A DNA stretch of 64,000 nt, from the NCBI GenBank assembly GCA_034432095.1, contig DAOUCV010000026.1:24657-88656 (forward strand). Reading direction: 5' to 3'. The notes beneath the pieces were generated by a model that saw only the letters and a list, made by a program, of their open reading frames with translations, made no database searches and was not told the origin of the DNA. Position 1 is the first letter of the stretch; the number at the start of each line of letters is the position of its first letter. A program made the translations under genes and the position numbers. Below are positions 9,703 to 46,434 of this stretch, piece by piece. The DNA comes from Dehalococcoidales bacterium. GTDB taxonomy: Bacteria; Chloroflexota; Dehalococcoidia; Dehalococcoidales; UBA2162.

Positions 9703-10161
9703 TTGTCGGAACAGTTAGCCCAGATTCTTGCTCCTTACCAGGGGCAAAGGGGAGCTACCGTCCCCGTTCTACAGAAGGTACAAGAGAAATTTGGCTATCT
9801 CCCTGAGGAAATAATCTCAGAGATAGCCAAATTTTTGGGTTTGACTAAGAACGAGGTCTACGGTGTGGCTAGCTTTTACGCCCAGTTTCGATTTGAGCCG
9901 CCGGCAGAACATACGATAAAATGTTGCCAGGGCACTGCCTGCTATGTTCAGGGCGGGCAGCGCATTCTAGAGGCGGTCGAACGGGAACTTGATATTCCAC
10001 CAGGGAAAACTATTACGAAAGATTACAGATTTAGTCTTGAGAGAGTGGCTTGTTTTGGTTCGTGTGCTTTAGCCCCGGTCATGGTGGTGGATAAGGCTAT
10101 CTATGGTAAAATGACTCCGGCTAAGGTAAGAGAAATACTGGCTCAGTATCAAGGAGAGTAG
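9703..10161 (+). CDS. NuoE/HoxE-type [2Fe-2S] flavoprotein small subunit (formate dehydrogenase gamma-like)
   Basis: 152 aa with the four-Cys thioredoxin-like 2Fe-2S pattern (CCQGTAC ... CFGSCALAP). Confidence 0.9.
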   Translation: MSEQLAQILAPYQGQRGATVPVLQKVQEKFGYLPEEIISEIAKFLGLTKNEVYGVASFYAQFRFEPPAEHTIKCCQGTACYVQGGQRILEAVERELDIPPGKTITKDYRFSLERVACFGSCALAPVMVVDKAIYGKMTPAKVREILAQYQGE

Positions 10162-10163
10162 TA

Positions 10164-12086
10164 GTGTCATTTGATGAAATCCGTGGGCAAGCGGTGGCGG
10201 AATGGGAGGCTTTACAGCACAGCGATAAACCTCGTATTCTGGTGGGCACCGCCACCTGTGGTCGAGCCGCCGGGGCGCTAACTGTTTTGGAGACCATTGA
10301 GAAAGAATTATCCAGATTAGACATTGAGGCAATAGTAACGCAGGTCGGCTGTATCGGGCTCTGTTATGCTGAACCTATTGTCGACATCATTAAGCCAAAC
10401 CGCCCTCGTATCTCTTACGGCAGGGTCACCCCGGAAGTTGTTTCCCGTCTAATTGAAGACTATATTGTCAATGACAACCCTCGTCCCGACCTGGCTATGG
10501 GTTATATCGGTGAAGGTAGTGTTGATGGCATTCCCAGGCTTTTTGATTTACCGGTGTTCAAGCCCCAGTTGCGTATCTCACTGCGTAATTGTGGGCACAT
10601 AGACCCTACCGATATAAAGCAATACATTGCCAATGATGGTTATAGCGGTTTTATTAAGGCACTAAAGATGACTCCTGAAGAGGTTATTGATGAGGTAAAG
10701 AAGTCTGGATTGAGGGGGAGGGGGGGGGCTGGTTTTCCTACCGGTCAGAAGTGGGAATTCTGCCGACGCTCACCGGGTAAAGAGAAGTATCTGATCTGCA
10801 ATGCTGACGAAGGTGACCCTGGTGCTTTTATGAATCGGTCGCAGTTGGAAAGTGACCCCCACGCTGTATTAGAAGGGATGCTTATTGGTGCCTATGCCAT
10901 CGGAGCAGCCAAGGGCTATATTTATTGTCGTGCCGAATACCCACTGGCTATAGAGCGGTTAAAGATTGCTCTGGAGCAGATGCGAGGGTGTGGCTTGCTA
11001 GGGGAAAATATACTTGGTTCTGGCTTCAGTTTTGATATTGAGATAAAGGAAGGCGCTGGTGCTTTTGTCTGTGGCGAGGAAACCGCCTTGATGGCTTCTA
11101 TTGAGGGTAAGAGAGGGATGCCCCGGTCCCGTCCTCCGTTTCCGGCAGTATCTGGTTTATGGGGGAAGCCGACCAATATTAATAATGTCGGGACCTGGGC
11201 TGATGTCGCCGCCATATTGCAAAAGGGAGGTGAATGGTATTCCCGTTTCGGTTCGGAGACAAGCAAAGGCACTAAAACCTTTTCTCTAGCCGGCAAAATA
11301 GCGCGTACCGGGTTAATCGAAGTACCGATGGGTATCAAGCTGGGTGAAATTATCTATGAGATTGGCGGGGGAATTGTTGGGGGCAGGCAATTTAAGGCGG
11401 TACTGACGGGAGGGCCATCGGGTGGTTGCCTGCCAGCCAGTATGCTGAATCTCCCCGTAGACTATGAGAACTTAGCCGAGGCCGGTTCCATAATGGGTTC
11501 CGGAGGTATGCTCGTTGCTGATGAAGATACCTGTATGGTTGATATGGCAAGGTTCTTTTTGTCCTTTACTCAGGCCGAATCTTGCGGTAAGTGTGTTCCC
11601 TGCCGTGTCGGCACCAGGCAGATGCTGGGTATCCTGGAGCGTATTATCCGGGGTGAAGGGCAGCCGGACGACATTGAGCGCCTTGAACAATTAGCCCGGT
11701 TGGTTAAATCTACCTCTCTGTGCGGCTTGGGGCAGACTGCTCCCAATCCGGTGCTAACCACGATTCGTTACTTTCGTGACGAATATGAAGCTCATATTCA
11801 CCAGAAAAGATGCCCAGCATTAGTCTGTAGCAGGTTGGTTTCTTATTATATCCTCCCTGATAGATGTGAAGGTTGTGGCATATGTCTCAGAAATTGCCCG
11901 GTTAGAGCTATATCCGGTGGCAAGCGGATGGTGCATGTTATTGACCAAGATAGGTGTACCAAATGCGGCACTTGTCTCAGTGTCTGTCCTGAGCGATTCA
12001 GTGCGGTGGTGAAAGTTTCCGGAGAGAGATTAGATGTTCCCAGCGAACCAGTCCCGGTAGCTTCATCAAAGGTAAAGGGAGATTGA
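10164..12086 (+). CDS. NuoF/HydB-type NAD(P)H-binding FMN iron-sulfur subunit (formate dehydrogenase beta-like)
   Basis: 640 aa. N-terminal thioredoxin-like 2Fe-2S domain. Canonical GRGGAGFPTGQKW, CNADEGDPGAF and GAGAFVCGEETAL motifs. ESCGKCVPCRVG plus LCGLG (4Fe-4S). C-terminal 2x[4Fe-4S] ferredoxin (CEGCGICLRNCP, CTKCGTCLSVCP). Confidence 0.9.
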   Translation: MSFDEIRGQAVAEWEALQHSDKPRILVGTATCGRAAGALTVLETIEKELSRLDIEAIVTQVGCIGLCYAEPIVDIIKPNRPRISYGRVTPEVVSRLIEDYIVNDNPRPDLAMGYIGEGSVDGIPRLFDLPVFKPQLRISLRNCGHIDPTDIKQYIANDGYSGFIKALKMTPEEVIDEVKKSGLRGRGGAGFPTGQKWEFCRRSPGKEKYLICNADEGDPGAFMNRSQLESDPHAVLEGMLIGAYAIGAAKGYIYCRAEYPLAIERLKIALEQMRGCGLLGENILGSGFSFDIEIKEGAGAFVCGEETALMASIEGKRGMPRSRPPFPAVSGLWGKPTNINNVGTWADVAAILQKGGEWYSRFGSETSKGTKTFSLAGKIARTGLIEVPMGIKLGEIIYEIGGGIVGGRQFKAVLTGGPSGGCLPASMLNLPVDYENLAEAGSIMGSGGMLVADEDTCMVDMARFFLSFTQAESCGKCVPCRVGTRQMLGILERIIRGEGQPDDIERLEQLARLVKSTSLCGLGQTAPNPVLTTIRYFRDEYEAHIHQKRCPALVCSRLVSYYILPDRCEGCGICLRNCPVRAISGGKRMVHVIDQDRCTKCGTCLSVCPERFSAVVKVSGERLDVPSEPVPVASSKVKGD

Positions 12087-12135
12087 GAAAGTTCAGATAG
12101 CTCCTAAAGATTATTTTAGCGAGGTTAGATGCAGA

Positions 12136-14889
12136 ATGATTACTTTAACTATTAATGACCAGAAAGTTGAAGCCAGTGAAGGGATGACGGTGCTGGAAGC
12201 AGCGAAGAAGGCTGGCATATATATCCCGACATTATGTTATCATGAATCCTTATCCCCCTACGGAGGCTGTCGTCTATGTGTTGTGGAGATTGAGAAGATG
12301 CGGGGCTTCCCCACGGCGTGCACGACACCGGCTGATAACGGCATGGTGGTAAAGACAAACACGCCACAGCTTCAGGAGTTCCGGCGGGGTATTTTAGAAC
12401 TGATGCTGACCGAGCATCCCCATACCTGCCTCATCTGTGACCGGAAGGAGCGATGTGAACCTTTTGATATATGTTTGCGCAGTGTGGCTGTGACCGAGCG
12501 CTGTGTGCTTTGTCCCAAGAATGGACGCTGTGAGCTGCAGGGGGTATTCGATTATGTAGGTCTTAAAGAAATCACGTTGCCGTATGCCTACAAGGATTTA
12601 CCGGTACACCGGGAAGACCCCTTCTTTGACCGGGATTACAACCTGTGCATCCTGTGCGGGCGGTGTGTCAGAGTCTGCCAGGAGGTAAGAGGTGCGGGGG
12701 CAATAGCCTTTACTTACCGCGGCAGCCGGACACTGGTTGGGACTGCCTTCGACCGACCGCTACAGGAATCGGGGTGTCAATTCTGTGGGGCGTGTGTTGA
12801 TATCTGCCCTACTGGGGCACTAATGGAACGGAGCCGAAAATGGGAGGGAGCCCGGGCTGAGCGTGAGGTGATTACCACCTGTCCTTACTGTGGGGTTGGC
12901 TGCCAGTTGAAGCTACAGCTTAAAGGGGACAGGATAATTGAAGTTCTCCCCAAGCGAGAAAATGCCGTAAATCGCGGGCAAGCCTGTGTCAAAGGCCGCT
13001 TTGGCATTCAAGAATTTGTTCATCACCCGGAGCGTCTACGCACCCCCCTAGTGAAGCGGAACGGGAAGTTTGAAGAGGCTACCTGGGATGAGGCACTGGA
13101 CATCGTCGCCCATAAGCTAGCCGGTTACAAACCAGATGAACTGGCTGTAATCCTCTCAGCCAAGGGTACTAATGAAGATAATTATGTTGCCCAGAAATTT
13201 GCCCGGGTGGTGCTGGGCACCAACAACATTGACCACTGTGCCCGTCTCTGACATGCCCCCACCGTAGCCGGTCTGGCTACAGCCTTTGGTAGCGGAGCAA
13301 TGACCAACTCTATCAACGAGATTGGTGATGCTGCCTGCATTCTGGCTATCGGCACCAACACCACGGCGGCTCACCCGGTAATCGGGCTGGAGGTGAAGAG
13401 GGCGGTGTTCAACGGGGGCAAGCTCATTGTTGCCAACCCCCGGGAAATTGAGCTGGTGCGTTTTGCTGACCTGTGGCTGAGGCATCAGCCGGGTAGTGAT
13501 GTCGCCCTGCTGATGGGGATGATGCGGGTGATAGTAGATGAGGGACTGCTTGACTCAACCTTTATACAGGAGCGGTGCGAGAACTTTGATGCCTTTAAGG
13601 CATCGCTAAAAAACTTTGACCTTGATTTTGTGGAGCAGGTTACCGGGGTGCCTAAGGAAAAGGTAGTTGAGGCTGCCCGGATGTATGCCACTAGTAAACC
13701 AGCAACTATTCTCTATTGTATGGGACTTACTCAACACTCGCATGGCACCGATAATGTTCTGGCTACGGCTAACCTAGCGATGCTCACCGGCAACATCGGT
13801 AAGCGGTCAACCGGGGTTAATCCGTTGCGTGGTCAGAACAATGTGCAGGGTGCCTGCGATGTTGGTGCTCTGCCCAATGTGTATACTGGCTACCAATCAG
13901 TAGCCGATGCGGCTGTTAGAGAGAAATTTGAAAAAGCCTGGGGAGTTAGCCTGAACCCCTCTCCAGGGCTGACCCTCACTGAGATATTTGATGCTGCCCA
14001 CAAAGGACAGATAAAAGCGGTCTATCTTATCGGGGAGAACCCGGTGCTCAGTGACCCCGACGCTAACCACGTCAGGGAATCTATAGAAGCACTGGAATTC
14101 TTTGTCGTTCAGGATATATTCCTCACCGAGACAGCCCAGCTGGCTGATGTCGTCCTGCCCTCAGTTAGCTTCGCTGAGAAGGACGGCACCTTTACCAATA
14201 CTGAACGCCGGGTACAACGGGTAAGGAAAGCGATTGAGCCGCTAGGCGATGCCAAGCCTGACTGGGAGATTACCTGCCAGATTGCCCGGAGAATGGGGGC
14301 TAAGGGCTTTGATTTTGAGAGTCCAGCTCAGATTATGGACGAGATTGCCAGTCTCACTCCCAGCTACGGGGGCATTTCCTACAGTCGTTTAGAGGGTGGA
14401 GGCTTGCAGTGGCCCTGCCCGAATAAGGAGCATCCGGGCACTCCAGTTCTGCATACTCAGCAGTTCAGTCGGGGGAAGGGTAGGTTTACACCTCTGGAGT
14501 ACAAGCCACCTAAGGAATTGCCCGATAGTGAGTATCCCTTAATCCTGACCACCGAACGAAGCCTGTATCAGTACCACACTGGCACCATGACCCGGAAGGT
14601 GAAGGGACTGAATACCATCCGTGGGGAGGAAATGGTTGAGATAAACCCGAGCGATGCCTCAGCCTTGGGTATTGCTGATGGCGAGATGGTCAAGGTCATC
14701 TCCCGGCGGGGAGAGGTGGTGGCTAGGGCTAAAGTGACTGAGACTTCGCCGGTAGGGGTGGTCACGATGGACTTTCACTTTGCCGAAAGCCCGGCGAATG
14801 TGCTGACCAATCCCGCGCTTGACCCGGTGGCTAAAATCCCTGAACTCAAGGTCTGCGCTGTCAGAATAGAGAAGAACGGGCGTAAGTGA
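12136..14889 (+). CDS. fdhA: formate dehydrogenase alpha subunit, selenocysteine-containing (in-frame UGA at 13249-13251)
   Basis: ORFs 12136-13251 and 13300-14889 share a frame. Their junction reads [26 protein letters not shown], the Mo/W-bisPGD Fdh active site. N-terminal NuoG-like 2Fe-2S and 4Fe-4S Cys clusters. Confidence 0.9.
13249..13300 (+). other. selenocysteine UGA codon plus SECIS hairpin
   Basis: TGA at 13249-13251. Twelve nt downstream lies the hairpin GUAGCC-GGUCU-GGCUAC (13264-13280), whose GGUC-containing apical loop resembles the E. coli fdhF SECIS. Confidence 0.8.
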
Positions 14890-32435: not shown

Positions 32436-32537
32436 GTCCTCCTCCTTTTGTAACTAAGACATATTGACTTTTTCTTTCCACTCCGTCAAAAATTTGTAGT
32501 TCTAGTATAACACGTCCTTTGTGATTGACGGTTCTAA

Positions 32538-32546
32538 TGTTATAAT
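32538..32546 (+). promoter_or_regulatory. extended -10 promoter candidate TGtTATAAT
   Basis: TG at 32538-32539, TATAAT at 32541-32546, about 30 nt upstream of ATG 32578. No good -35 element. Confidence 0.35.
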
Positions 32547-32577
32547 CTATGAAAGTCATCAATCGAAGGGGGAGAAA

Positions 32578-34044: not shown

Positions 34045-34089
34045 ACACGAAGAAACTCACCGGTGAATAAATTCAGGAAGGAGCGAAAA

Positions 34090-35358
34090 ATGGGACTGGA
34101 AGAATACTTAGGTGATATGGAGATGTGCTGCCGGTGTTCTGCCTGCAAGTTTATACCCATGCAAAGGGTGACCGGATTTCAGTACGCAAATGTGTGTCCC
34201 AGCATATCGAAGTATGATTTCCATGCCTACTCGGGCGGCGGAAGATTAAACATCGCCGCGGCGATGTTGAAGAATAAAATTGAGTATTCCGACAAGCTCC
34301 TCGATATTGTGTACAACTGTCAGATGTGCGGTGCCTGTGATATATCCTGTAAATATGCTATGGATATGGAGGTACTTGAGCCCATCTATGAATTCCGCAT
34401 CAGAGCTGTGGAAACAGGACATACCCACCCGGCTCTTGATAAAGTTATCAGGAGCCTGGGCAAACAGGGTAGTATGGTGCCCGGCGTCAGGGGCAAGCGT
34501 GGCGACTGGGCGGCCGGCCTGGACTTAAAGGACGCTACTGAAGAGAAGGTGGCTGTTTTATATCATGTCGGCTGTCTGGCGAGCTACGACAAGAATTACC
34601 AGAAGCTGGCTAGAGCTATTGCCAAGATATTACAGAAGGCTGGTGTCAACTTCGGTATCGCTGGCGACGCTGAGACCTGCTGCGGCGGGCGGGCTTATCA
34701 GATGGGCTATAAAGAGGACTTTCTAAATCAGGCAAAAAAGAACGTGGAAATGATAAAAAGAGCAGGGGCAAAAACATTGGTCACCGGCTGTGCCGACGGC
34801 TATCAGGCTTTCAAGGTGCTCTACGACAAATACAACCTCAAGGGTGAGTGGGAAGTCGTGCATATCACCGAGTTAATAGCCCGCCTGATTAAACAGGGCA
34901 AACTCAAGCTGAACAAGAAAGTTAATATGAATGTCACTTACCATGACCCCTGCCACCTCGGCAGGCTGAGTGAGCCGTGGATTCACTGGGAGGGGAAAAA
35001 GGTTCCGGGGCACCGGTTTGTCTTCGACCCGCCCAAGACCTATCGCCGGGGTACCAATGGCGTTTATGACCCACCGAGGGATGTGCTGAACAGCATTCCC
35101 GGTGTAAGGCTTACCGAGATGGTCAGGATAAAGGAATACTCCTGGTGCTGCGGGGCCGGTGGCGGCGTTAATGAGTCCAACCCTGAGTTTTCCCTGTGGA
35201 CCGCCAAAGAAAGGCTCGAAGAAGCTGAGTCTACCGGGGCTGAGGCGATTGTTACCACCTGTCCCTGGTGCGAAAAGAACCTTAGCGAAGCCATCAAGGA
35301 AACCGGCAGCAGCCTGAAGGTGTACGATATCGTTGAACTCGTAGAAAAGGCAATCTGA
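34090..35358 (+). CDS. GlcF/HdrD-like (Fe-S)-binding subunit with two CCG domains
   Basis: Two 4Fe-4S ferredoxin motifs (CCRCSACKF...CPS and CQMCGACDISC) and two CCG motifs (ETCCGGRAY, SWCCGAGGG). Confidence 0.8.
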   Translation: MGLEEYLGDMEMCCRCSACKFIPMQRVTGFQYANVCPSISKYDFHAYSGGGRLNIAAAMLKNKIEYSDKLLDIVYNCQMCGACDISCKYAMDMEVLEPIYEFRIRAVETGHTHPALDKVIRSLGKQGSMVPGVRGKRGDWAAGLDLKDATEEKVAVLYHVGCLASYDKNYQKLARAIAKILQKAGVNFGIAGDAETCCGGRAYQMGYKEDFLNQAKKNVEMIKRAGAKTLVTGCADGYQAFKVLYDKYNLKGEWEVVHITELIARLIKQGKLKLNKKVNMNVTYHDPCHLGRLSEPWIHWEGKKVPGHRFVFDPPKTYRRGTNGVYDPPRDVLNSIPGVRLTEMVRIKEYSWCCGAGGGVNESNPEFSLWTAKERLEEAESTGAEAIVTTCPWCEKNLSEAIKETGSSLKVYDIVELVEKAI

Positions 35359-35376
35359 GAAAGGGGGCAATGAACC

Positions 35377-36846
35377 ATGGCTTTAAGCAAGGACATTTAT
35401 CAGGCGTTCGAAGATGTGGTGGGAAAGGAGTACATCTGTGATGACCCGGCAATAATGCCGGCGTATCATTCGGCTGAGCTCGCCGCGGTAATTCTTCCCA
35501 AGAACACCGCGGAAGTTCAAGCGATAGTCAAGCTATGTAACAAATTCAAGCTGAAATTCAGAGCGGTATGTACCGGCTGGACGGGGATGTTCCCCAAGGG
35601 GATTATCTATTTAGACCTGAGAAGGATGAACCGCATCATTGAGATCAATGAGAAAAATATGTATGCCGTGGTTGAGCCGTATGTCATCTCAGCACAGCTA
35701 CAAGCCGAGCTATTCAAGAGGGGCTTGAATTGCAACATAAAGGGAGCGGGGTCTAACTGCACGGCGCTCCTCAGGGGTCACGGACATATGGACCAGACCA
35801 CCAGTGGCGACGACCGAAACCATCTGGCGGTAGAATGGGTAACTCCTGAAGGGGAAATAGTCAGGTTGGGTTCGCTGGGGTCTTCGGATGAATGGTTCTG
35901 TGGTGACGGGCCAGGACCGTCTTTAAGGTGCTTGATTAGCAGTGCGGTGCCGCCAGGCGTAACACCGGGTGTATTTACAAAAGTGGCGATGAAGCTTTAT
36001 CACTGGCCAGGACCCCCAAGATTTCCAATAACAGGGGTATCACCAAATTACACCCTGAGTGAGATACCACCTGGCTTCATGGTACGATATTTCAGCTTCC
36101 CGTCACCAGAGAAAATGTATGAGGCGGAGCTAAAGATAGGTGAGAGTGAAATAGCCTTTGAGCTAATGGGTTTCAATATGTCAATGGTAGCAGCGAATAT
36201 AACAACTTGTAATGAAGAAGAGGCGGAAGTCTTCGGGCGGCTAAACAAGTTGGTGCAGGGGCCTGGCTTTATGGTAATCATCGCCGGCAACTCTCCGGAA
36301 GACTTTGACTATAAGAAACGGGTGCTGGAGCAAATTATCAGTGAAACTGACGGGCAGTCCTTAAAACCAGTCGAAGACCCCAAAATTGAAGGGGTTCTGT
36401 TGTGCCAGTGTATAAGAATTAGTGCCTCCATTAGAGAGACGTTCCGGGCTGGAGGGGTCTTTAATTCAATTCCTGTTATGGGCCAAAGAGACTTGACGCT
36501 CAAATGGATGTTAGGGGCTGCCAGGGCAAAGGAGCCCTTGATAAGTAAGGGGTTGATAGTGGATGATGGCGCCGCGGGCTTTGGCTGGGGAGTTGAACAT
36601 GGGCATCTCGGGAAAACTGAGATATTCTGCCGGTACGACCGTCTCAACCCTGAAGCGGTAAAAGCCGTGCAGGAATGGCAAAGGGAGCAAACTAAGAGGG
36701 CTTTTGATGGCCGCTTCTTCGCCTCCACAATGGGCCCGATTGATGAAATCGGACCAGCTTTGTCAAATTACCATATATGGTTGAGGAAGGTTCAGAAAGC
36801 ACTTGACCCGAATGATGTATCACCCGCGGGAGGCGCACTTGTCTAG
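35377..36846 (+). CDS. FAD-binding oxidoreductase-like protein, VAO/GlcD family, highly divergent second subunit
   Basis: 489 aa. Same domain order as 32578-34044 (ILPKNTAEVQAIVKLC ... YLDLRRMNRIIEINEKNMYAVVEPYV), but the glycine-rich FAD loop is altered. Confidence 0.6.
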   Translation: MALSKDIYQAFEDVVGKEYICDDPAIMPAYHSAELAAVILPKNTAEVQAIVKLCNKFKLKFRAVCTGWTGMFPKGIIYLDLRRMNRIIEINEKNMYAVVEPYVISAQLQAELFKRGLNCNIKGAGSNCTALLRGHGHMDQTTSGDDRNHLAVEWVTPEGEIVRLGSLGSSDEWFCGDGPGPSLRCLISSAVPPGVTPGVFTKVAMKLYHWPGPPRFPITGVSPNYTLSEIPPGFMVRYFSFPSPEKMYEAELKIGESEIAFELMGFNMSMVAANITTCNEEEAEVFGRLNKLVQGPGFMVIIAGNSPEDFDYKKRVLEQIISETDGQSLKPVEDPKIEGVLLCQCIRISASIRETFRAGGVFNSIPVMGQRDLTLKWMLGAARAKEPLISKGLIVDDGAAGFGWGVEHGHLGKTEIFCRYDRLNPEAVKAVQEWQREQTKRAFDGRFFASTMGPIDEIGPALSNYHIWLRKVQKALDPNDVSPAGGALV

Positions 36847-37688: not shown

Positions 37689-38283
37689 TCATTGCTCTAC
37701 ATCCAGTCCCCATATCCTGAACAACTCCTTGTAGAACTCAGGACGGGGGAAGTCAGGCCTCATCTCAAAGCTGGAATAGGTATATCCGGCACCCCTCTTT
37801 CCCCATTGCCTGAGCTCCAAGATTAAGTCTTCTATCTTATCTTTAGGCACGGAGAAAATGAGTTCGTCCTCTCCTGGCATTGCCCGCTGCTGCTCGCCGG
37901 CACAGGGCAGGCTAATCCGGTACCGGCCTGTTAACATTACATCCACAACGGCGTAAACGCACGAGTTTATCGGGTCCAATTGAGAGCTCACCAGGATGCC
38001 CTCTCTATTCGGTCGCCTCGGGCTCCACCAGCCCGAAGCTGATTAACGGGGCCCAGCACCAGTTGTCCTCTTTCAGCATGGCTACAGTAATTCTCTGCCG
38101 ACGCGACATGGCGAAAGCCTGACATTGCGAAAGATGAAAGCCACGGTCTCGCCGTGGTCTGAAGGCGTCTTTGGGGGGTTCCTCTTTCTTCTCAAGCATC
38201 TTCACCGCTAGGGGGGAAGTCCTCAATAGCAGTAACTTCTCAAGGTCTTCTCCATATTGATTGTAATCGCTGATTGTTATCAT
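37689..38283 (-). pseudogene. DUF169-like gene split into two ORFs (92 aa N-part, 100 aa C-part) by a frame change, apparently missing the middle section
   Basis: N-part: LRTSPLAVKMLEKKEEPP...LSQCQAFAMSRR. C-part: ISLPCAGEQQRAMPGEDELIFSVP. Together these resemble the ends of DUF169 proteins. The stop is at 38005-38007, and the next ORF is in the +1 frame from 37991. Confidence 0.4.
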
Positions 38284-38384: not shown

Positions 38385-38777
38385 CTACTTTTTCACAAAC
38401 TTCGCCACTCTAGCTAGCAGCTCTTCAGGGCTAACTGGCTTTTCAATGTAATCTTCAGCGTCGAGGGTAAACCCGCGGCTAACTGGGATCCCTGTCCCCG
38501 CACGCTTAGCTGAAAAACCCGTTAACATGAGGGTCGGGATTTTACTGAGTTGAGGGTCTTTTTTGAGCTGTTCAGCAGCCGTGAACCCATTTTTGACTGG
38601 CATTATCACATCCAAGAGAATCAAATCAGGTTTTTCCTCTCTTGCTTTCCGTAATGCCTCATCACCTTCACGGGCGACTATTACCTCATAAGCCTTACTC
38701 TCTAGGATAGTTTTGGTTGACTCCACAAAGTCCATATCATCGTCAACAAGCAAAATTCTGGTTTTCTTCTGCTTCAT
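38385..38777 (-). CDS. single-domain response regulator (CheY-like receiver only)
   Basis: LLVDDD, phospho-acceptor LILLDVIMP, LMLTG, EKP. No output domain. GAGGAG RBS before ATG 38777. Confidence 0.9.
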   Translation of the reverse strand: MKQKKTRILLVDDDMDFVESTKTILESKAYEVIVAREGDEALRKAREEKPDLILLDVIMPVKNGFTAAEQLKKDPQLSKIPTLMLTGFSAKRAGTGIPVSRGFTLDAEDYIEKPVSPEELLARVAKFVKK

Positions 38778-38813
38778 TGTTTCTCTCCTCAAGTATTGAG
38801 CCTATGGCCCAGG

Positions 38814-39215
38814 TCAGACCTTCTGTCTCTTTTTGATAAGCTTGCCCACCCTCTCCAGCAGAACATCAGGGGAAACAGGCTTCTCAACATAATCATCGAC
38901 ATCGAGCTCGAGACCGGTCTCCAGCTCGTAGCGACGGCGACTAGCCTCCTCCCTTACTGAGGTTAGAATTAGAATGGGTATATCCTTGAACTTTGCCCAT
39001 CTTGGGTCTTGCAACTCTTTACATACCCCAAACCCATCCAGCTTTGGCATCAACAGGTCGAGGATCATCAGGTCAGGTTTTTCCGCTTTGAGGGTAGCTA
39101 AACCTTCTATCCCGTCTCGGGCGGTAACCACCTGATAGCCCTGAGTTTCCAGAATCATACTTACCGCATCTAAGATGTCCGGGTCGTCATCAACTACCAA
39201 TATCTTCGCTGGCAT
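38814..39215 (-). CDS. single-domain response regulator (CheY-like receiver only)
   Basis: LVVDDD, LMILDLLMP, LILTS, EKP. 133 aa with no output domain. Confidence 0.9.
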   Translation of the reverse strand: MPAKILVVDDDPDILDAVSMILETQGYQVVTARDGIEGLATLKAEKPDLMILDLLMPKLDGFGVCKELQDPRWAKFKDIPILILTSVREEASRRRYELETGLELDVDDYVEKPVSPDVLLERVGKLIKKRQKV

Positions 39216-39232: not shown

Positions 39233-40150
39233 TTATAATACAGGTCTGGGCAATAATCCAGCCTGCTTTACAATTTCCGGGACGATGTCCTCCCAGCCGA
39301 CTGCCATAATATGGATGCCGTGCACTCCGGGTATTTCCTTGAGTTGCTCAATAATCTCAAGAGCGATTTTCACTCCCTCCTCTTTGGCATTCCTCGCCTC
39401 TTCCATTCTGGTGACTATCTCATCGGGGACACTGACTCCGGAAACATAGTCGCGCATATAGCGAGCCATACCTGCTGACCTGATGGGTATTACTCCAGCT
39501 AGAATATGTACCTGCTTGTCCAGACCTTTATCGGTAACCATCGCCATCCATCTGGCGAACTTGGCTACATCATAGACTGCCTGGGTTTGAATAAAGTCAG
39601 CTCCTGCTTTTATCTTCTTAGCCAGTCTCGTTACTCGGAACTCAAAGGGGTCAGCATAGGGATTCTCCGCAGCGCCAATGAATAGCGGGACTTCTCCAGA
39701 GATATCCTCGCCGCAGAGAAGTTTCTTCTCATCCCGCATTTTCTTCAGGGTTTGAATTAACTGGATGGAGTCAATATCAAAGACATTCTTGGCTGTGGGG
39801 TGATTGCCAAACTTTTGATGGTCGCCGCTAAGGCAGAGGATATTGCCGATGCCCAGAGCTACCGCCCCCAGTACATCGCTTTGAATGGCGATTCTGTTGC
39901 GGTCTCGGCAGACGATCTGCATAACTGGGTCAACCCCCTGTTGCTTTAGAAGGAGACAACCGGCGAAGCTGGACATACGAACGATGGCGGTCTGATTATC
40001 AGTTACATTGACGGCATCGCAACAGTTACGGAGTAGTTCACCCCTCCTCAGCATCACCGTAGCGCTAGTCCCCTTGGGTGGACCTGCCTCAGCAGTAACG
40101 GCGAACCCCCCACTTTCCAGGACCTTCTCCAGATTTGTTCCTGCTTTCAT
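39233..40150 (-). CDS. metF: methylenetetrahydrofolate reductase, acetogen-type MetF
   Basis: 305 aa MTHFR TIM-barrel (FAVTAEAGPPKG, NVTDN, FIGAAENP, GADFIQTQ). Its ATG overlaps the histidine kinase stop (ATGA). Confidence 0.9.
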   Translation of the reverse strand: MKAGTNLEKVLESGGFAVTAEAGPPKGTSATVMLRRGELLRNCCDAVNVTDNQTAIVRMSSFAGCLLLKQQGVDPVMQIVCRDRNRIAIQSDVLGAVALGIGNILCLSGDHQKFGNHPTAKNVFDIDSIQLIQTLKKMRDEKKLLCGEDISGEVPLFIGAAENPYADPFEFRVTRLAKKIKAGADFIQTQAVYDVAKFARWMAMVTDKGLDKQVHILAGVIPIRSAGMARYMRDYVSGVSVPDEIVTRMEEARNAKEEGVKIALEIIEQLKEIPGVHGIHIMAVGWEDIVPEIVKQAGLLPRPVL

Positions 40151-41622
40151 TGTTGTTGCCTCCGTTCTATTTCACACTTAGGTAAGCGGAAGGAAAATTT
40201 GCTGCCTACGTTATTCTCGGGGCAAGGGGACTCAACCCATATCGTCCCTCCATGTGCCTCTATAATCCTCCTGGCTATGGATAGCCCTAAGCCTGTGCCC
40301 TTCGTTTCCACATTACTGGCACGGAAAAAGTCTTCAAAGATGTGGGGCAGGTCCTGGGGAGGGATGCCAATCCCGGTATCGATGACTTCAACCCGTATGT
40401 CCCTGTCTTCTTCCTCCACTCTGACCGTTATTGTGCCCTCAGGGGTGTAGGTAATAGCATTGCTCACCAGATTGGTTATCACCTGCTGGAGACGAGGGGC
40501 TGAGCCACGAATATTAGGGACTGACCCGGGCAACTCCACCTTGAGCTTTAGTCCCTTTTCCTTTGCCCGGTCACGCAGGTCGTCGCACCCGGTCTTGACC
40601 ACCTGGCACAGGGAGATCTCCTTCATCTCTTCAACAAGCTGCCCGGTTTCAATGCGGGGGATATCGAGAAGGTCGCTGATTAGACTCAGGAGTTCATTAA
40701 TCCTTCTGGTGCTCCTTTCCAGCATATTCTTCTGTTTGGCAGTGATTTCCCCGGCATATCCACCCAGCATAACCCACAGGAAACCTTGGATAGCCGTAAG
40801 CGGGGCTTTAAGGTCATGAGCGGCAATGCCCAGGAAGCGGAGGAAGCGACTTTTCTCTTCTTCAAGCTTGGCTATCTCCCTTGAAGCTTGCTCTAATTCT
40901 CCCGTTTTCTCTCGAAGCAGGTACTCTCTTAATTGAACTACTTCTCTCTGTCTCTTCCTCAGCTCTCCTGAGATAGCTGTGGTCATATACGTGGTAGCAT
41001 AAAGAATAACCACTAAAGCGGTAAGAACCGATAAGATATAACCCCCCTCTTTATACAGTGTCGGAGGAGCAAAGCCTACTAGATTGACATGGGCTATCAC
41101 TCCGGCATATTCCAGCCCTACCAGCAAAGTTATCATTAGCGTTGCTACAGTTGCTAGCAGATATACCGTCCGGTAAGGCTGGATTATGCTGGCAATGATA
41201 ATGTGGAATACGAAGAAGAAGATAAATGGGTTTTCTATTCCGCCGGTAAAGTGAAGAATTGCGGTGAGGGCCAATAGGTCGAAGATGGTGTTGATGTAGC
41301 CATAGGTTCGGGATTTCTGGATTATCATGCCGGGCTTCTCAGTTCGGAGTCTTCGCACCTGGTAAATTAGAATCAGGTTATACCCGGCCAATATGACACA
41401 GATAATATAGACCGGGAGGGTGGGGAACCCAATATGGAAAACCTTTGACGCTAACAAGGTAGCAACAATCACCCCGAGAATAGCCAGCCATTTCAGGCGA
41501 ATGAGAATCCTTCGCCGCATTAATAATGCGGCTTCCTCGGGGGTGTATTCGTGTTTCCCCTCCTCCTTCCCCCCATCCAGCAGGTAAGCCAGGGATTGCA
41601 GGGACTTGTTCCACCGCCTCAT
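40147..41622 (-). CDS. membrane-bound sensor histidine kinase
   Basis: About 6 N-terminal TM helices, coiled coil, H-box GIAAHDLKAPL, N-box LVSNAITYT, G-boxes DTGIGI and GTGLGLSIARR. ATG 41622 is preferred because it avoids overlap with metV. Confidence 0.9.
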   Translation of the reverse strand: MRRWNKSLQSLAYLLDGGKEEGKHEYTPEEAALLMRRRILIRLKWLAILGVIVATLLASKVFHIGFPTLPVYIICVILAGYNLILIYQVRRLRTEKPGMIIQKSRTYGYINTIFDLLALTAILHFTGGIENPFIFFFVFHIIIASIIQPYRTVYLLATVATLMITLLVGLEYAGVIAHVNLVGFAPPTLYKEGGYILSVLTALVVILYATTYMTTAISGELRKRQREVVQLREYLLREKTGELEQASREIAKLEEEKSRFLRFLGIAAHDLKAPLTAIQGFLWVMLGGYAGEITAKQKNMLERSTRRINELLSLISDLLDIPRIETGQLVEEMKEISLCQVVKTGCDDLRDRAKEKGLKLKVELPGSVPNIRGSAPRLQQVITNLVSNAITYTPEGTITVRVEEEDRDIRVEVIDTGIGIPPQDLPHIFEDFFRASNVETKGTGLGLSIARRIIEAHGGTIWVESPCPENNVGSKFSFRLPKCEIERRQQQ

Positions 41623-41627
41623 TATTA

Positions 41628-42287
41628 TTACCCCTCTAAAGCAATCTTTCTGGGTCCCCCGGCGTGGCTGGTGCTCCAATCGCGGGGTGGGGCGATTTCC
41701 TCCAGCCGGTCCAGCTGCCCCAGAGTTTCCAGGCGCTCAATTATCATCTGCCAGGCGCAGGGGATGTCTGGTGATAGTTCGCACCTGCCCTTTACCGAAC
41801 CACCGCAGGGCCCGTTAAGCAGGCTCTTAGCACATCTGACCAGGGGGCATATACCCGCCGTCTGTGCCAGGACGCAACTACCGCACTGGGCACAAACCTC
41901 GATAAAATAACCCGGACTCTCCTCCTTACCAACAAACAAGGTGTTCAGTGCCGGATAAACAGGCTTGGGCTTCCCCAAATAGAGGGAAACAGTTTGTACT
42001 CCAAAGGCACAGGTGAGCACCAGGATACAATCGGCAGCATCAATATCATTAGCATTCTCCTGCAAAGCTTCCCGTGTGAGCTCGTCACAGGCGGTGGGGA
42101 TGACCATCCATCCGGTCACTTTCTTGCCGGCTTCCTCAAGCTTGGCTTTCATTTCCAGAACCTCGGATTTACCACCAGTTCGGCACAGAGTAGCACAGGT
42201 ACCACACCCGATAAGGTAAACCCCCTGGCATTTACCCAGTAATTGCGTAACCTCTTCCCAGGGTTTTTGCTGGGTTATTGTCTTCAT
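41628..42287 (-). CDS. metV: MetV (methylene-THF reductase C-terminal-domain / zinc-ribbon Fe-S subunit)
   Basis: 219 aa. Hallmark motifs CPLVRCAKSLLNGPCGG and CAQCGSC. Its ATG overlaps the NuoF-like stop (ATGA). Confidence 0.85.
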   Translation of the reverse strand: MKTITQQKPWEEVTQLLGKCQGVYLIGCGTCATLCRTGGKSEVLEMKAKLEEAGKKVTGWMVIPTACDELTREALQENANDIDAADCILVLTCAFGVQTVSLYLGKPKPVYPALNTLFVGKEESPGYFIEVCAQCGSCVLAQTAGICPLVRCAKSLLNGPCGGSVKGRCELSPDIPCAWQMIIERLETLGQLDRLEEIAPPRDWSTSHAGGPRKIALEG

Positions 42288-43504
42288 ATCACTGCTCCTG
42301 CCTTAATGTCTTTTCTTAGCCGGTCATCATAGGCGCTTCTAAAATACCGAAGGCTGTCCATTACCGGATTGGGCACTGCCTGTCCCAAACTACATAGGGA
42401 AGCAAGCCTCATAACCTTGGACAATTCCTGTAGGTTCTTAATGTCTTTCTCTGTCCCCTCCTCACCGGAGAACTTCTTCAAGATTTCAAGCATTACCTGG
42501 GTTCCCTCCCGGCACGGAGTACATTTACCGCAGGATTCCCGGCTAAGAAACTCCAGTGTCTGGTAGACAATGTCTATTATACCTTTGGTTTCATCAAATA
42601 CGCTAACTGCTCCAGCCCCAAGAACAGCCTCAAAGGCGAGGGGAGTATCTATCATTTCATAGGGTATAATCCTTCCAATAGCGCCGCCTACCTGAACTGC
42701 CTTGACCTTTTCCGCTAGGGCTAGTCCTTCGACTAGTTCCCTCAGTGGACTCCCTAAGACTAGTTCATATACGCCGGGCTTCTTCACATCCCCGCTCACC
42801 CAGAAGACCTTGGTGCCTTTGCTCTTTTGTGTGCCCAACTGTCTGAACCATCGGGCGCCGTTAAGGATTATTTGGGGTATATTCATCAGGGTTTCTACAT
42901 TATGGACAATAGAGGGTTCCCTCCATAAGCTTTTAGCTGTGGTAAATGGGGGTCTATAGCCGACCTCTATGCGCTTACCCTCAATGGAATCCATAATTGC
43001 TGATTCATCACCAGTAACATAGGGAGCCGACCCCTGGCGAAGACCAATTTCAAAGTCTGCCAGAAGACCCTTCTCTTTGGCTTGCTGAAAAGCATTGGTC
43101 AAGAGAGGAATAAGATGACGATATTCAGTAGACAGATAGATATAGCCCTTATTTGAGCCTGTAGCATAGCCGGCAATAGCCATCGCTTCAATCAGAGTGA
43201 AGGGGTCTCTCTCCAGAATATACTTATCCTTAGATGTTCCAACCTCTCTCCCATCGGCATAGGCGATAACATACTTCTTATTCTCTTGAGCCTTTCTCAC
43301 CTCTTCCCACCTCAATCCGCAGAGAGAACCATCCCCTCCCCGCTCCTGCAAGCCCGATGCCTTTACTTCCCCCAGTACTTCTTCCGGGGTCATCTCTTCT
43401 CTAGCTTTTTTCAAAGCCTTGAAACCGTCTCTATCCAAATAGGTGGCTATGCGCTTGGGGTCAATTACCTCGCAATTTCGTAACACAATTCGCTTCTCTG
43501 GCAT
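42284..43504 (-). CDS. NuoF-like iron-sulfur protein with degenerate FMN/NADH-binding motifs
   Basis: 406 aa, collinear with the core of 10164-12086. RGGDGSLCGLRW replaces GRGGAGFPTGQKW, YADGREVGTS replaces CNADEGDPGAF, and APYVTGDESAI replaces GAFVCGEETAL. ESCGKCTPCREG and LCSLGQ are retained. AAGGAGG RBS before ATG 43504. Confidence 0.8.
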   Translation of the reverse strand: MPEKRIVLRNCEVIDPKRIATYLDRDGFKALKKAREEMTPEEVLGEVKASGLQERGGDGSLCGLRWEEVRKAQENKKYVIAYADGREVGTSKDKYILERDPFTLIEAMAIAGYATGSNKGYIYLSTEYRHLIPLLTNAFQQAKEKGLLADFEIGLRQGSAPYVTGDESAIMDSIEGKRIEVGYRPPFTTAKSLWREPSIVHNVETLMNIPQIILNGARWFRQLGTQKSKGTKVFWVSGDVKKPGVYELVLGSPLRELVEGLALAEKVKAVQVGGAIGRIIPYEMIDTPLAFEAVLGAGAVSVFDETKGIIDIVYQTLEFLSRESCGKCTPCREGTQVMLEILKKFSGEEGTEKDIKNLQELSKVMRLASLCSLGQAVPNPVMDSLRYFRSAYDDRLRKDIKAGAVI

Positions 43505-43505
43505 G

Positions 43506-43751
43506 CTATAGCCTCCTTGCTGAACCTGAGCTTGGCGGCTTGGTCGAGAGGAAAGGGCAAAAGGTGGCAACGCTATATACCTGGCTGGGGAATAGCTTTA
43601 GCCTGTCAGCAATAGCCTCTATAGCTGGTGCAGGAATCCAGCCAAATTCAGCTTGGACCTCAGCCAACACTGAGATTAAGGCGCCTTCCTGTCCTTTATA
43701 ATTAGCCAGTATTTTATCCAGTTTGCTTAGCTCTATTTCCTCGGTTTTCAT
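43506..43751 (-). CDS. NuoE-like N-terminal helical domain only (no 2Fe-2S domain)
   Basis: 81 aa. Aligns to residues about 5-65 of the NuoE at 9703-10161 (ILANYKGQEGALISVLAEVQAEFGWIP...VYSVATF). It stops before any cluster cysteine, and the next gene starts 2 nt later. Confidence 0.65.
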   Translation of the reverse strand: MKTEEIELSKLDKILANYKGQEGALISVLAEVQAEFGWIPAPAIEAIADRLKLFPSQVYSVATFCPFLSTKPPSSGSARRL

Positions 43752-43752
43752 C

Positions 43753-46434
43753 CTAAGCTTTCTCTACCTTCACCGCGCATGCCTTTAGCTCGGGTATCTT
43801 GGCCACCGGGTCCAGCGCCGGATTAGTCAGTATATTGGCGGCCGCTTCTTTAAAATGGAAGGGCATAAATACTGTGCCCGGTAGCACCATCTCGGTTACC
43901 CTAGCCCTGGTTATCAACGAGCCGCGTCTGGATGTTATCTTGACCATGCTGCCATCCAACACTCGCAGGTTTTCAGCATCGTCAGGATTTATCTCAACAA
44001 AGCCTTCAGAACATATTTCATTAAGTCCCCTAACCCTTCTCGTCATTGTCCCGGTATGGAAGTGATATAAAACCCTCCCCGTGGTCAGTACCAGGGGGTA
44101 GTCCTTATCTGGCAGTTCGGCCGGGGGAATATATTCTACAGGGGTAAACTTGCCTCGACCCCTGATAAACCTGTCTTCGTGCAGAAACCTTGTCCCGGGA
44201 TGGTCTTGACCGGGGCATGGCCATTGTAATCCCCCATTTTCAAGTCGGTCGTAGCTTATGCCACCGTAGCTGGGCGTTAGCCGGGCAATTTCGTCCATAA
44301 TTTGCTTGGGTGATTCATAAGCCATGGGATAACCCATCCTGGTAGCTAGCTCGCTGATTATCTGCCAGTCAGGCTTTGCCTGCCCGATAGGCTCGATAGC
44401 CTTCCTCACCCTCTGGACACGCCTCTCGGTGTTGGTGAATGTCCCGTCCTTCTCGGCAAAGCTGACGGCGGGGAGTACTACATCAGCCAGTTTGGCGGTC
44501 TCACTCAAGAATATGTCCTGGACGACGAGAAAATCAAGCGATTCAAGGGCTTCTATGACATGAGTAATATCTGGGTCACTGAGTGCCGGGTTCTCTCCCA
44601 TAATATACATCCCTCTGACTTTTCCTTCTTTGGCGGCTTGGAGCATTTCCACTACCGAGAGTCCGGCTTTGTCAGGTAGTTTACTTCCCCATTCCTTCTC
44701 AAACTTTTCCCTAACTGAGGCAACATCCAGCCGTTGGTATCCCGGAAATACATTTGGCAAAGCCCCCATATCGCACGCTCCCTGGACATTGTTCTGACCT
44801 CTCAGAGGGTTGACCCCGGTGCCCTCTTTACCGACATTCCCGGTCAGCATCGCCAGATTGGCCAGACTAAGCACATTATCCGTACCGCTGGTATGCTGGG
44901 TAATCCCCATGGCGTAGATTATTGAAGCTCTCTCGGCTTGGGCATATAGCCTGGCTGCCTTACGGATATCAGAGGCTGGAACGCCGGTGACCCGTTCCGC
45001 ATACTCCGGGGTGTATTTCTGTATCCCTGCCTTCAGTTCCTCAAAGCCTTCGGTCCTTTGGCTGACAAACTCCTTGTCCCAGAGTTCTTCATTGATAATT
45101 ACATTTACCAAGCCATTGATAAGGGCGACATCGGTGCCTGGTCTTTGTCTCAGCCATATGTCGGCAAATTTGGTCAGTGTTATGGCTCGCGGGTCAGCGA
45201 TGATTAACTTTGCTCCCTTTAACTTGACCGCCCGTTTAATCCGATGGCTTATTATGGGATGTTCTTCGGTGGTGTTGGAGCCGATAACCAGAATGGCAAT
45301 GGCACTTTCTATTTCCTCTATAGAGTTGGTCATCGCTCCGCTACCGAAGGCTGTAGCCAGACCGGCTACGGTGGGGGCATGTCAGAGGCGGGCGCAATTA
45401 TCTATGTTATTGGTACCAATAACCGCCCGCATAAATTTTTGCATCAGGTAGTTTTCTTCATTGGTGCACTTGGATGAACTCAAGCCAGCGAGACTATCGC
45501 TACCATATTTCTGTTTGATTTCCTCCAGTTTATGAGCCACGAAATCCAGCGCTTCTTCCCAGGAGCTTTCCGTAAGCTCGCCATTTTTCCTGATTAATGG
45601 GGCTTTCAGCCGGTCAGGGTGATTGATAAAGTTGAGTCCATAGCGACCTTTGACACACAGGCGCCCCTGGTTAACCGGGTTTTCTCCATCAGGAGTCACG
45701 CTAATGACTTCTTGGTCTCGAACGTTAAGCTCAACTCCACAGCCGCAGCCACAATAAGGGCAGATGGTACGAACCTTTCTCGTCGTTTTCCACTTATACT
45801 TGGCCGGTCTATCTGATAACGCCCCCACAGGGCACATGGAGACGCAGAGCCCGCAAAATTCACAAGAGGATTTTTCCAAAGGCTGGTCAAGCAGGGTCGC
45901 CGGTTTGGACTGAAATCCCCGGTAGGCATAATCAATGGCACCTACAACTGACAGTTCCTGGCAGGCTCTTATGCATTTGCCACAAAGAATGCACTTGGTA
46001 AGGTCCCTCTCAATAAAGGGGTTGGTGTCTTCTATCGGGTAATAGCGTTTCTTAGCCCTGAATCGGGGGAGCCCTACCCCCAGGTCAGCCGCAATCTTGC
46101 GTAACTCGCACAGGTTCGCTTTGTCACATACCAGGCAGTTATCGGGGTGGCTGGCTAGCAACAGTTCCACTATTGCCCGCCGAGCTTCCACAACCTTTGG
46201 GGAATGAGTATATATAACCATTCCCTGGGCAATTGGCGTGTGGCAGGAGCCGACAAGCGTACCAGAGCCCTCCACCTCAACGACGCAAACACGACAGGCA
46301 CCGATAGGAGTCAAGACCGGACTATGGCAGAGGGTGGGAATATATATGCCGTTGTCCCGGGCAACCTCCAGAATGGTCATGCCCTCACGCCCGCTAACTT
46401 TGGAACCGTCAATCGTTATAGAGATATTGCCCAT
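43753..46434 (-). CDS. fdhA: formate dehydrogenase alpha subunit, selenocysteine-containing (in-frame UGA at 45384-45382)
   Basis: ORFs 45382-46446 and 43753-45333 share a frame. Their junction reads [27 protein letters not shown]-terminal 2Fe-2S/4Fe-4S clusters. Paralog of 12136-14889. ATG 46434 is preferred over TTG 46446. Confidence 0.9.
45333..45384 (-). other. selenocysteine UGA codon plus SECIS hairpin (second copy)
   Basis: TCA at 45382-45384 on the + strand is UGA on the - strand. The hairpin GUAGCC-GGUCU-GGCUAC lies at 45369-45353, 12 nt downstream of the UGA, and is identical to the first copy. Confidence 0.8.

Follow-up and report, generated by a model that had tools for sequence, protein, structure and literature searches.

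We describe a 64,000-nt stretch of a Dehalococcoidales bacterium genome (assembly GCA_034432095.1, contig DAOUCV010000026.1, positions 24,657 to 88,656), called the window here and numbered throughout from its first letter. On its minus strand, a selenocysteine (Sec) formate dehydrogenase (FDH) gene, reduced relatives of NuoE and NuoF (denoted NuoE' and NuoF'), and the genes of a MetVF-type methylenetetrahydrofolate reductase (MTHFR) stand in the order fdhA2-nuoE'-nuoF'-metV-histidine kinase-metF-two response regulators. The features of this operon are as follows.

43753..46434, minus strand: FdhA2, selenocysteine formate dehydrogenase alpha subunit with a mosaic, NuoG-like N-terminus, 893 aa
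43506..43751, minus strand: NuoE', 81-aa stub of a NuoE/HoxE/FdsG-type subunit (Pfam 2Fe-2S_thioredx)
43512..43518, minus strand: AAGGAGG Shine-Dalgarno sequence of nuoF' (DNA alignment with the related, canonical locus L006)
42284..43504, minus strand: NuoF', 406-aa NuoF-like protein with its [4Fe-4S] (N3-type) site intact (Pfam and motif comparison)
41628..42287, minus strand: MetV (DUF5981), small subunit of MetVF-type MTHFR (Pfam PF12225, 122.7 bits)
40147..41622, minus strand: histidine kinase between metV and metF (HisKA/HATPase_c)
39233..40150, minus strand: MetF, catalytic subunit of MTHFR (Pfam PF02219, 145.2 bits)
38385..39215, minus strand: two single-domain response regulators at the end of the conserved cluster (Response_reg)

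These genes are packed so closely that their junctions indicate translational coupling from fdhA2 through metF. Spacers of 1 nt separate fdhA2 from nuoE' and nuoE' from nuoF', the nuoF' stop overlaps the metV start and the kinase stop overlaps the metF start (ATGA in both cases), and 6 nt lie between metV and the histidine kinase. The NuoE-like and NuoF-like open reading frames (ORFs) are where the original prediction, made from the letters of the window, had placed them; the 2-nt gap it gave between the two is in fact 1 nt (TAG at 43508..43506, ATG at 43504). The nuoF' ORF could be extended to a TTG at 43570; every homolog begins MPEKRIVL, so the ATG at 43504 is used. MetV and MetF are encoded together, as expected of a MetVF-type MTHFR, and FdhA2, MetV, and MetF are ordinary members of their own families. 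About 30 kb away on the opposite strand, the window holds a second cluster of related genes that serves as an internal reference.

9703..14889, plus strand: reference paralog cluster of a full NuoE (152 aa), a HydB-like NuoF with canonical flavin mononucleotide (FMN)/NADH motifs (640 aa), and Sec-FdhA1

NuoF' combines an intact iron-sulfur site with eroded flavin and nucleotide loops. It matches the Pfam families Complex1_51K (99 bits) and NADH_4Fe-4S (101.7 bits), and SLBB weakly; the reference NuoF (10164-12086, 640 aa) reaches 155 bits against Complex1_51K and carries extra N-terminal 2Fe-2S and C-terminal 2x[4Fe-4S] parts. Four segments of NuoF' set out the difference.

43307..43354, minus strand: degenerate glycine-rich loop, residues 51-66, GLQERGGDGSLCGLRW against GLRGRGGAGFPCGLKW in the family
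43223..43264, minus strand: degenerate NADE loop, residues 81-94, AYADGREVGTSKDK against CNADEGEVGTFKDR in the family
42995..43033, minus strand: degenerate GAGAYxCGEE loop, residues 158-170, GSAPYVTGDESAI against GAGAYVCGEESAL in the family
42392..42532, minus strand: intact 4Fe-4S ligand region, C325, C328, C331 ... C371, in invariant or nearly invariant alignment columns

Thus QERGGDGSL, YADG, GSAPYVTGDE, and HNVET stand where GRGGAGF, NADE, GAGAYxCGEE, and NNVET are expected. Alignments with relatives contain every motif substitution that had been quoted in the original prediction, and the 4Fe-4S motif is intact, as it held (C325/C328/C331/C371). When the comparison is widened to HydB/NuoF-type proteins at 37-45% identity, 12 near-invariant residues, each at least 90% conserved among diverse NuoF/HydB/FdsB relatives, turn out to be replaced in NuoF': G54E, F60S, K65R, N82Y, E85G, G86R, R125S, G160A, E166D, L170I, G179I, and P188T. 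When residues are mapped to Aquifex/Thermus numbering by motif identity rather than superposition, F60S removes the adenine-stacking Phe (Phe70/71 of Nqo1/Aquifex NuoF) (PMC11677225), and E85G removes the equivalent of Glu95 at the nicotinamide/flavin face, which belongs in that numbering to the nicotinamide triad Glu95-Ser96-Glu97 (PMC11677225; PMC6560083). K65R is a conservative change at the Lys76 position, and the Glu185 equivalent (E167) is kept. The check that had been suggested, profile alignment to Complex1_51K and 2Fe-2S_thioredx with inspection of contact residues, gives the expected picture, with F60 and E85 lost and the NuoE' profile partial. From these substitutions, FMN/NADH binding by NuoF' has presumably been lost.

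A homolog search over 5.8 billion proteins places this erosion within a family that otherwise retains the site. More than 120 clusters show 65-100% identity to NuoF', mostly from Chloroflexota where a source is named, and 117 relatives at 65-74% identity keep GLRGRGGAGFPCGLKW, CNADEGEVGTFKDR, GAGAYVCGEESAL, and INNVET. The degenerate motif set occurs only in eight sequences, which fall into three clusters at 90% identity clustering (P0001, the window protein; P0002/P0121; P0003/P0122-P0125) with 84-89% identity between groups. Of the positions conserved to at least 95% among the 117 relatives, 22 are altered in all eight sequences; the FMN/NADH domain accounts for 17 of them (Fisher p = 0.006), so its degeneration exceeds chance. 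Canonical members share several other features of NuoF', namely a length of 399-406 aa, the lack of extra Fe-S domains, GGATGR, and an 8-residue deletion. The idea that NuoF' differs from the reference NuoF by degeneration therefore holds for the FMN/NADH loops, and fails for the missing N- and C-terminal Fe-S domains and for GGPSGG becoming GGAIGR, which are family traits. A scan of genome contigs found the nearest relatives in metagenome-assembled genomes (MAGs) of Dehalococcoidia, Chloroflexi, and NPL-UPA2 at 63-68% identity and in one MAG labelled Calditrichales at 67%; a protein-representative search returned relatives at 47% identity or less and one 242-aa fragment at 62%. The degenerate clade itself is probably affiliated with Chloroflexota/Dehalococcoidia.

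The family corresponds to the NuoEFG-MetFV cluster to which Yi et al. (2021, PMC8515935) give a single paragraph. They describe it as a possible, unstudied 'X type' of MTHFR that many Desulfobacterales and Chloroflexi carry and that Dethiosulfatarculus has too. In all six canonical loci with upstream DNA (L003, L006, L009, L010, L011, and L013, from Dehalococcoidia, Chloroflexi, NPL-UPA2, and other MAGs), the order is G-NuoE-NuoF-MetV-(optional histidine kinase)-MetF, where G is a 222-226-aa Fe-S protein resembling the N-terminus of NuoG, NuoF has 399-406 aa, and NuoE is full-length (aligning over 125-148 aa; 146-147 aa where annotated). The histidine kinase occupies the same position in L006, L009, and L010, and the response-regulator pair is conserved in L006 and in L059-L062; two-component genes also flank metF in marine Chloroflexi (Sewell et al. 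2017, PMC5736913). The window MetV and MetF are 89% and 93% identical to their L006 counterparts. Neighbour-joining trees with 200 bootstraps pair the degenerate clade with canonical L006 as its sister (100% for NuoF, 97% for MetF); the stem branch of the clade is long, 0.157 against 0.070 for L006. The clade is nested in the canonical family, so its state is derived, and NuoE' and NuoF' are derived members of the X-type NuoEFG-MetVF MTHFR cluster family. They were originally taken for reduced NuoE/NuoF paralogs; they are not reduced paralogs of the in-window NuoEF pair or of complex I, and the other members of their family have a normal FMN site and a full NuoE. The window agrees with the X-type arrangement in its operon backbone, its orthologous proteins, with the NuoF ortholog directly upstream of metV-metF, and its histidine kinase and two response regulators. 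It departs from it in having an 893-aa Sec-FdhA where a small (~222 aa) G is expected, an 81-aa clusterless NuoE' in place of a full NuoE, and degenerate FMN/NADH motifs in NuoF. The three changes occur together in the clade: Sec-FdhA fills the G slot in every locus whose upstream DNA extends far enough to show it, six of those that carry NuoE'.

Two further measures bear on the fold and identity of NuoF'. Against TIGR01959 (nuoF_fam), NuoF' scores 360.4 bits and its canonical sister P0004 441.7; both fall short of the equivalog cut-off of 558.65, so neither is a complex-I NuoF, and NuoF' has lost a further 81 bits relative to P0004. AlphaFold2 models of NuoF' (pLDDT 89.3, pTM 0.88) and P0004 (90.8, 0.89) have the same fold and share a low-confidence loop at residues 161-170, with pLDDT of 71 against 81 at residues 81-90 and 56 against 71 at residues 181-190. 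Foldseek matches the NuoF' model to NfnB, HydB, StnB, FdsB, and Nqo1 at TM scores of 0.85-0.92.

NuoE' covers positions 2-63 of the 145 in the Pfam 2Fe-2S_thioredx profile (57 bits, residues 12-73), keeping the N-terminal helical domain and none of the four cluster cysteines; as had been proposed, the thioredoxin-like 2Fe-2S domain is gone. DNA alignment with L006 shows that a single deletion of ~210 nt removes this entire domain, and that the deletion junction forms the AAGGAGG Shine-Dalgarno sequence of nuoF', the L006 equivalent being GTGAGG. All clade members inherit the deletion, which bears out the earlier view of a clean loss with no frameshift. Word-based searching with NuoE' retrieved no more than seven clusters, every one exactly 81 aa. 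Seven loci of the degenerate clade (L001, L002, L059-L063) contain the whole of NuoE', and its characteristic C-terminal tail also appears at the truncated ends of L005 and L008; these nine loci represent nine samples and at least two chromosomal neighbourhoods. Across 64 aa the stub has 70% identity to a full-length NuoE encoded in an FDH operon (L069). Over residues 1-60 this identity is again 70%, against ~40% to X-type NuoE, and over residues 61-73 (SVATFCPFLSTKP) 9 of 13 residues match X-type NuoE and 4 of 13 match L069. NuoE' is thus a chimera of FDH-type and X-type sequence. A simple truncation of X-type NuoE was considered and ruled out, the first 60 residues being nearer to the L069 FDH-operon NuoE.

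FdhA2 bears the marks of a similar exchange. Its in-frame TGA (45384..45382, context CARL-U-HAPT) stands at the active-site position with His next to it, the in-window paralog FdhA1 likewise having an in-frame TGA at the active-site position, and the C-terminal fragment alone scores 707.7 bits against TIGR01591 (cut-off 666.25). Residues 1-135, with 2Fe-2S and His-ligated 4Fe-4S motifs, share 83% identity with the G protein of L006. For residues 136-215 the figures are 77.5% with the FDH-type L069 protein and 54% with G, and residues 216-893 match the Cys-type FdhA of L068, the closest FdhA relative of FdhA2, at 83.5% and FdhA1 at 62%. On these identities FdhA2 is a mosaic of a G-type N-terminus and an FDH catalytic part. 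Fusion of a whole G protein to an FDH catalytic domain, suggested by an N-terminus 73% identical to G, was rejected. In the N-terminal tree FdhA2 branches beside the G clade, as its sister, and not within it, and sliding windows locate a breakpoint near residue 135 that is common to the L068 FdhA; we therefore read cassette recombination in place of a simple fusion. Because a complete NuoE-NuoF(HydB-like)-FdhA operon lies directly beside the X-type operon in canonical genomes (L003, L009, L011), such recombination is plausible. An FDH-operon cassette that began midway through the FdhA N-terminal domain and ended midway through nuoE would have recombined into the X-type operon at two homologous stretches, and the C-terminal domain of NuoE would have been deleted afterwards or in the same event. 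This is, we infer, the simplest origin of the locus. Starting at the UGA, a 65-nt stretch (45320..45384, minus strand) is identical at 63 of 65 nt to 13249-13313 (plus strand), with flanks at ~65%, and at 64 of 65 nt in L059-L062. It is probably either a candidate selenocysteine insertion sequence (SECIS) under RNA-level constraint or a gene-conversion tract; a candidate SECIS fold 3' of the UGA scored no better than shuffled sequences (z = -0.04).

Selection acts on both reduced subunits. We estimated ratios of nonsynonymous to synonymous substitution rates (dN/dS) by the Nei-Gojobori method from three lineages within the degenerate clade, and these values are rough. They are 0.20-0.22 for NuoF' and 0.20-0.26 for NuoE', alongside 0.11-0.16 for MetV, 0.045 for MetF, and 0.08-0.12 for FdhA2; NuoE' and NuoF' are under purifying selection, with no neutral drift. 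Within NuoF', the FMN domain stands at 0.26-0.33 against 0.07-0.10 in canonical pairs of similar dS, a three- to fourfold relaxation, whereas the Fe-S domain, at 0.11-0.16 against 0.09-0.20, is not relaxed. In canonical proteins the FMN domain is the best-conserved domain of NuoF, and the relaxation is therefore specific to the flavin/nucleotide region. This pattern fits the original suggestion that the pair may act as a scaffold or electron wire rather than a dehydrogenase.

A metagenome scan queried with the nearest FdhA relative places the window locus among arrangements with more and with fewer Nuo-type subunits. At one end, eight loci (L086, L088, L095-L097, L101, L121, L122) have FdhA, a full NuoE, a HydB-like NuoF, one gene, and then MetV-MetF. 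In L068 (381-3208), a mosaic-type Cys FdhA is followed after ~70 nt by the start of an X-type NuoF (VPEKRIVLKNCEVIDP...) with no NuoE between; this NuoF is seen for 30 codons only, to the contig end. In L073 (755-5025), FdhA runs straight into MetV, stop overlapping start, and MetF follows; NuoEF is absent, and the next gene downstream is truB, which is unrelated. L071 (4052-7400) has FdhA, a 25-nt gap, and MetV, with neither NuoE nor NuoF; both FdhA proteins are of the Cys type. These loci link FDH to MetVF repeatedly, with NuoEF ranging from complete to none. By this comparison the window locus sits in the middle of the series, and the minimal units of L073 and L071 are possible end states of a module replacement.

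We propose, at a probability of roughly 55%, that formate, acting through FdhA2, replaced NADH as the electron donor of MetVF, and that NuoE' and NuoF' are vestigial and kept as a scaffold or Fe-S relay. The ancestral order would have been G (NuoG-N-like)-NuoE-NuoF-MetV-[histidine kinase]-MetF, with FdhA2 taking the slot of the G subunit and keeping G-type sequence over its first ~135 residues. Electrons from formate would enter at the Mo/W-pterin of FdhA2, and the Fe-S chain in its G-type N-terminus would carry them on to MetV/MetF. The NADH/FMN site of NuoF would thereby become obsolete, dispensable because formate oxidation at FdhA2 supplies the electrons, and hence would have degenerated. 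In Thermus complex I, N1a is joined to the electron chain only via FMN, and the N1a-type cluster of NuoE would be useless once the flavin was gone. For complex I and FdsABG, the role proposed for such a cluster is an action on the flavin (PMC7171172). What remains of the two subunits is the NuoF' shell, including its N3-type 4Fe-4S cluster, and the helical part of NuoE' that docks on NuoF; both may pack against residues 1-135 of FdhA2, which is just the portion inherited from the X-type lineage, and the cluster may serve as a relay or an electron store. FdhA2 upstream and MetV-histidine kinase-MetF downstream, operon partners that the original prediction had not taken in, thus provide a probable reason for the loss. 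The predicted reaction of the operon is formate + methylene-tetrahydrofolate (methylene-THF) -> CO2 + methyl-THF, which would run downhill because the potentials are -432 mV for formate and -200 mV for methylene-THF (PMC6895022). The oxidative direction, in which methyl-THF oxidation would drive CO2 reduction, was rejected on the same potentials. Complex formation, the electron route, and formate as the physiological donor are all proposed here from sequence and gene context. More tentatively, at somewhat less than even odds, the operon may encode a soluble formate:methylene-THF oxidoreductase (FdhA-MetVF) that bypasses NADH and ferredoxin and is caught midway through discarding NuoEF.

Several observations weigh against a formate-fed MetVF with an emptied flavoprotein. 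Pocket residues G56, G57, G59, D84, E87, Y162, G165, E167, and N202 survive in NuoF', and the new residues are fixed clade-wide, so the pocket may be altered and functional. Structure prediction, which had been put forward as a check, shows the NuoF fold kept, as expected, but the pocket comparison of the AlphaFold2 models of NuoF' and its sister P0004 gives no discrimination. The dN/dS estimates are crude, resting on Nei-Gojobori counts over three lineages. The NuoF' cluster would lead nowhere if it is the FdhA/G module on which MetV docks, and the structural role then needed to explain its conservation is assumed. The loci with complete NuoEF beside MetVF mean that adjacency alone could reflect the clustering of Wood-Ljungdahl genes.

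This last point leads to the strongest of the competing explanations, which we nevertheless regard as unlikely: FdhA2-NuoE'-NuoF' would be a separate FDH that lies beside metVF through Wood-Ljungdahl gene clustering and has an acceptor other than MetVF, with electrons leaving through the N1b-N3 chain, for example to a ferredoxin docking at the emptied flavin pocket. Such an enzyme would fit the eight loci in which a complete FdhA-NuoE-NuoF stands beside MetV-MetF with an extra gene between, and would account for the tight constraint on the N3 cluster and Fe-S domain of NuoF'. It is harder to reconcile with the phylogeny, in which NuoF' belongs to the MetVF-associated NuoF proteins and not to the HydB-like ones of FDH operons, with the overlap of the nuoF' stop and metV start, with X-type G-E-F-V-F synteny kept across distant lineages, and with the existence of FdhA-MetV-MetF units that lack NuoEF (L073, L071). 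We consider it rather improbable that NuoF' is still a flavin/dinucleotide enzyme with a remodelled pocket, for instance one of changed donor specificity, and NuoE' a trimmed accessory. The three loop glycines and D84, E87, Y162, G165, E167, and N202 are retained, the substitutions are identical in 8 of 8 sequences, and the fold is predicted with high confidence, all of which a remodelled pocket would explain; but 12 residues at least 90% conserved have been replaced, including the adenine-stacking Phe and the Glu95 equivalent, the FMN domain, formerly the most constrained, is now the least so, the flavin-dependent N1a domain disappeared along with these changes, and the operon gained a new entry point for electrons in FdhA. 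Least probable of all is that NuoE' and NuoF' are decaying, non-functional remnants kept open by chance or for translation through to metV, an idea that draws on related lineages without NuoE (L068) or without both subunits (L071, L073) and on constraint 2-4 times weaker than in MetV/MetF, but that is opposed by a dN/dS of 0.2, far below 1, by ORFs that stay intact and of constant length (81 and 406 aa) across the 7-8 sequence clusters that nine samples yielded, at dS up to 0.55, and by the retention of all four cluster cysteines in an Fe-S domain as constrained as the canonical one.

In the bioenergetics of the Wood-Ljungdahl pathway, the physiological electron donor of MetVF has long been debated, and NADH, ferredoxin, Hdr-linked bifurcation, and quinone-linked routes have been proposed (PMC8760232; PMC8515935; PMC6895022). 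A donation of formate electrons to MetVF, if true, would define an unrecognised class of MTHFR and a natural answer to this question; the locus hints at an undescribed formate electron feed into a key step of CO2 fixation. Our literature searches found nothing specific on an FDH-MetVF unit, a degenerate NuoEF pair, or a NuoF homolog without FMN, and the nearest idea is an indirect, membrane-linked MTHFR-FDH scheme for Thermacetogenium phaeum (PMC6895022). The arrangements NuoEFG-MetVF, FdhA-NuoE'-NuoF'-MetVF, FdhA-NuoF-..., and FdhA-MetVF make a testable natural series, across which the formate module appears to take over electron input while the flavoprotein is first inactivated and then lost. 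That the N1a-type domain of NuoE vanishes together with the flavin site, with the N3-type cluster and the fold kept, bears on the debated role of N1a. The clade that carries these changes consists of eight sequences from uncultured organisms.

Several known systems share features with the locus. FdsABG(D) of Rhodobacter capsulatus and Cupriavidus necator (PDB 6tg9, 6vw7) likewise joins an FdhA with a NuoG-like Fe-S N-terminus to NuoF/NuoE-like partners, and NuoF' matches FdsB (E = 1.9e-78 to 6tg9_B; Foldseek TM 0.89-0.90 to 6tg9_B/6vw7_B), whose N-terminus offers a precedent for a clusterless ferredoxin-like domain (PMC7171172). The FMN/NAD+ site is central in FdsABG, whereas in the window it is degenerate and the FdsG-type cluster is deleted, and the window has the order A-G'-B' with metV directly following. 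At the sequence level, then, the two features that mark an NAD+-dependent FDH, the FMN/NAD+ site of FdsB and the [2Fe-2S] of FdsG, are degenerate or deleted. The locus resembles an FdsABG-type FDH stripped of diaphorase function and looks like a module swap on an X-type MTHFR. According to literature cited in PMC6895022, the RnfC2-MetVF MTHFR of Acetobacterium woodii is NADH-dependent. It too has an accessory subunit of the Complex1_51K fold that is encoded in the same cluster and feeds MetVF, and it is a model of the probable workings of the ancestral X-type enzyme; RnfC2, however, is of the RnfC type with FMN and NADH sites and no FDH, whereas NuoF' is of the NuoF type with these sites apparently lost. 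The N-module of complex I (NuoE/NuoF/NuoG; Nqo2/Nqo1/Nqo3) shares the folds, N3 in NuoF', and the N1b/N5/N4-type motifs in the FdhA2 N-terminus; the window genes differ in lying outside a nuo operon, in scoring below the cut-off, and in lacking both the FMN/NADH motifs and the N1a domain.

FMN-motif erosion is not unique to the clade, since about 6 of 150 diverse NuoF-like representatives show it with the cluster motif intact. Like NuoF', the NuoF/HydB-like protein P0131 (on L067) has an intact 4Fe-4S motif beside flavin/nucleotide loops that eroded independently; it differs in having hydrogenase partners, other substitutions, and a full-length NuoE-like partner. P0131 (L067:7001-8614) has the loops GLRERDSDAF, CTTEIGEPG, YVCSQDTAL, and IDTVET and is the second HydB of an [FeFe]-hydrogenase cluster whose HydC-HydB-HydA genes are duplicated in tandem. 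Further FMN-eroded representatives are P0244, P0261, P0253, P0257, and P0153.

Other arrangements of X-type genes were seen among the relatives. At L064 (411-5714), NuoF(X-type)-MetV-MetF-DUF3786-NuoE (150 aa) lie on one strand and converge on a 578-aa G-like protein with a truncated molybdopterin domain and no Molydop_binding domain; similar proteins of ~580 aa are also encoded elsewhere, P0297 of a complete Dehalococcoidia genome (CP070667) being one. In the window, just downstream of the two response regulators, DUF169 is present as two adjoining short ORFs (92 and 100 aa; 37689-38283, minus strand), a split that L002 shows identically and that may represent a split gene or a pseudogene. 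A few kilobases from the MetF end of the operon, a GlcD/GlcF-like cluster of FAD_binding_4, CCG-domain Fe-S, and FAD_binding_4 proteins (507, 422-431, and 489 aa) occupies 32521-36846 on the plus strand and adjoins a CobW-type GTPase gene.

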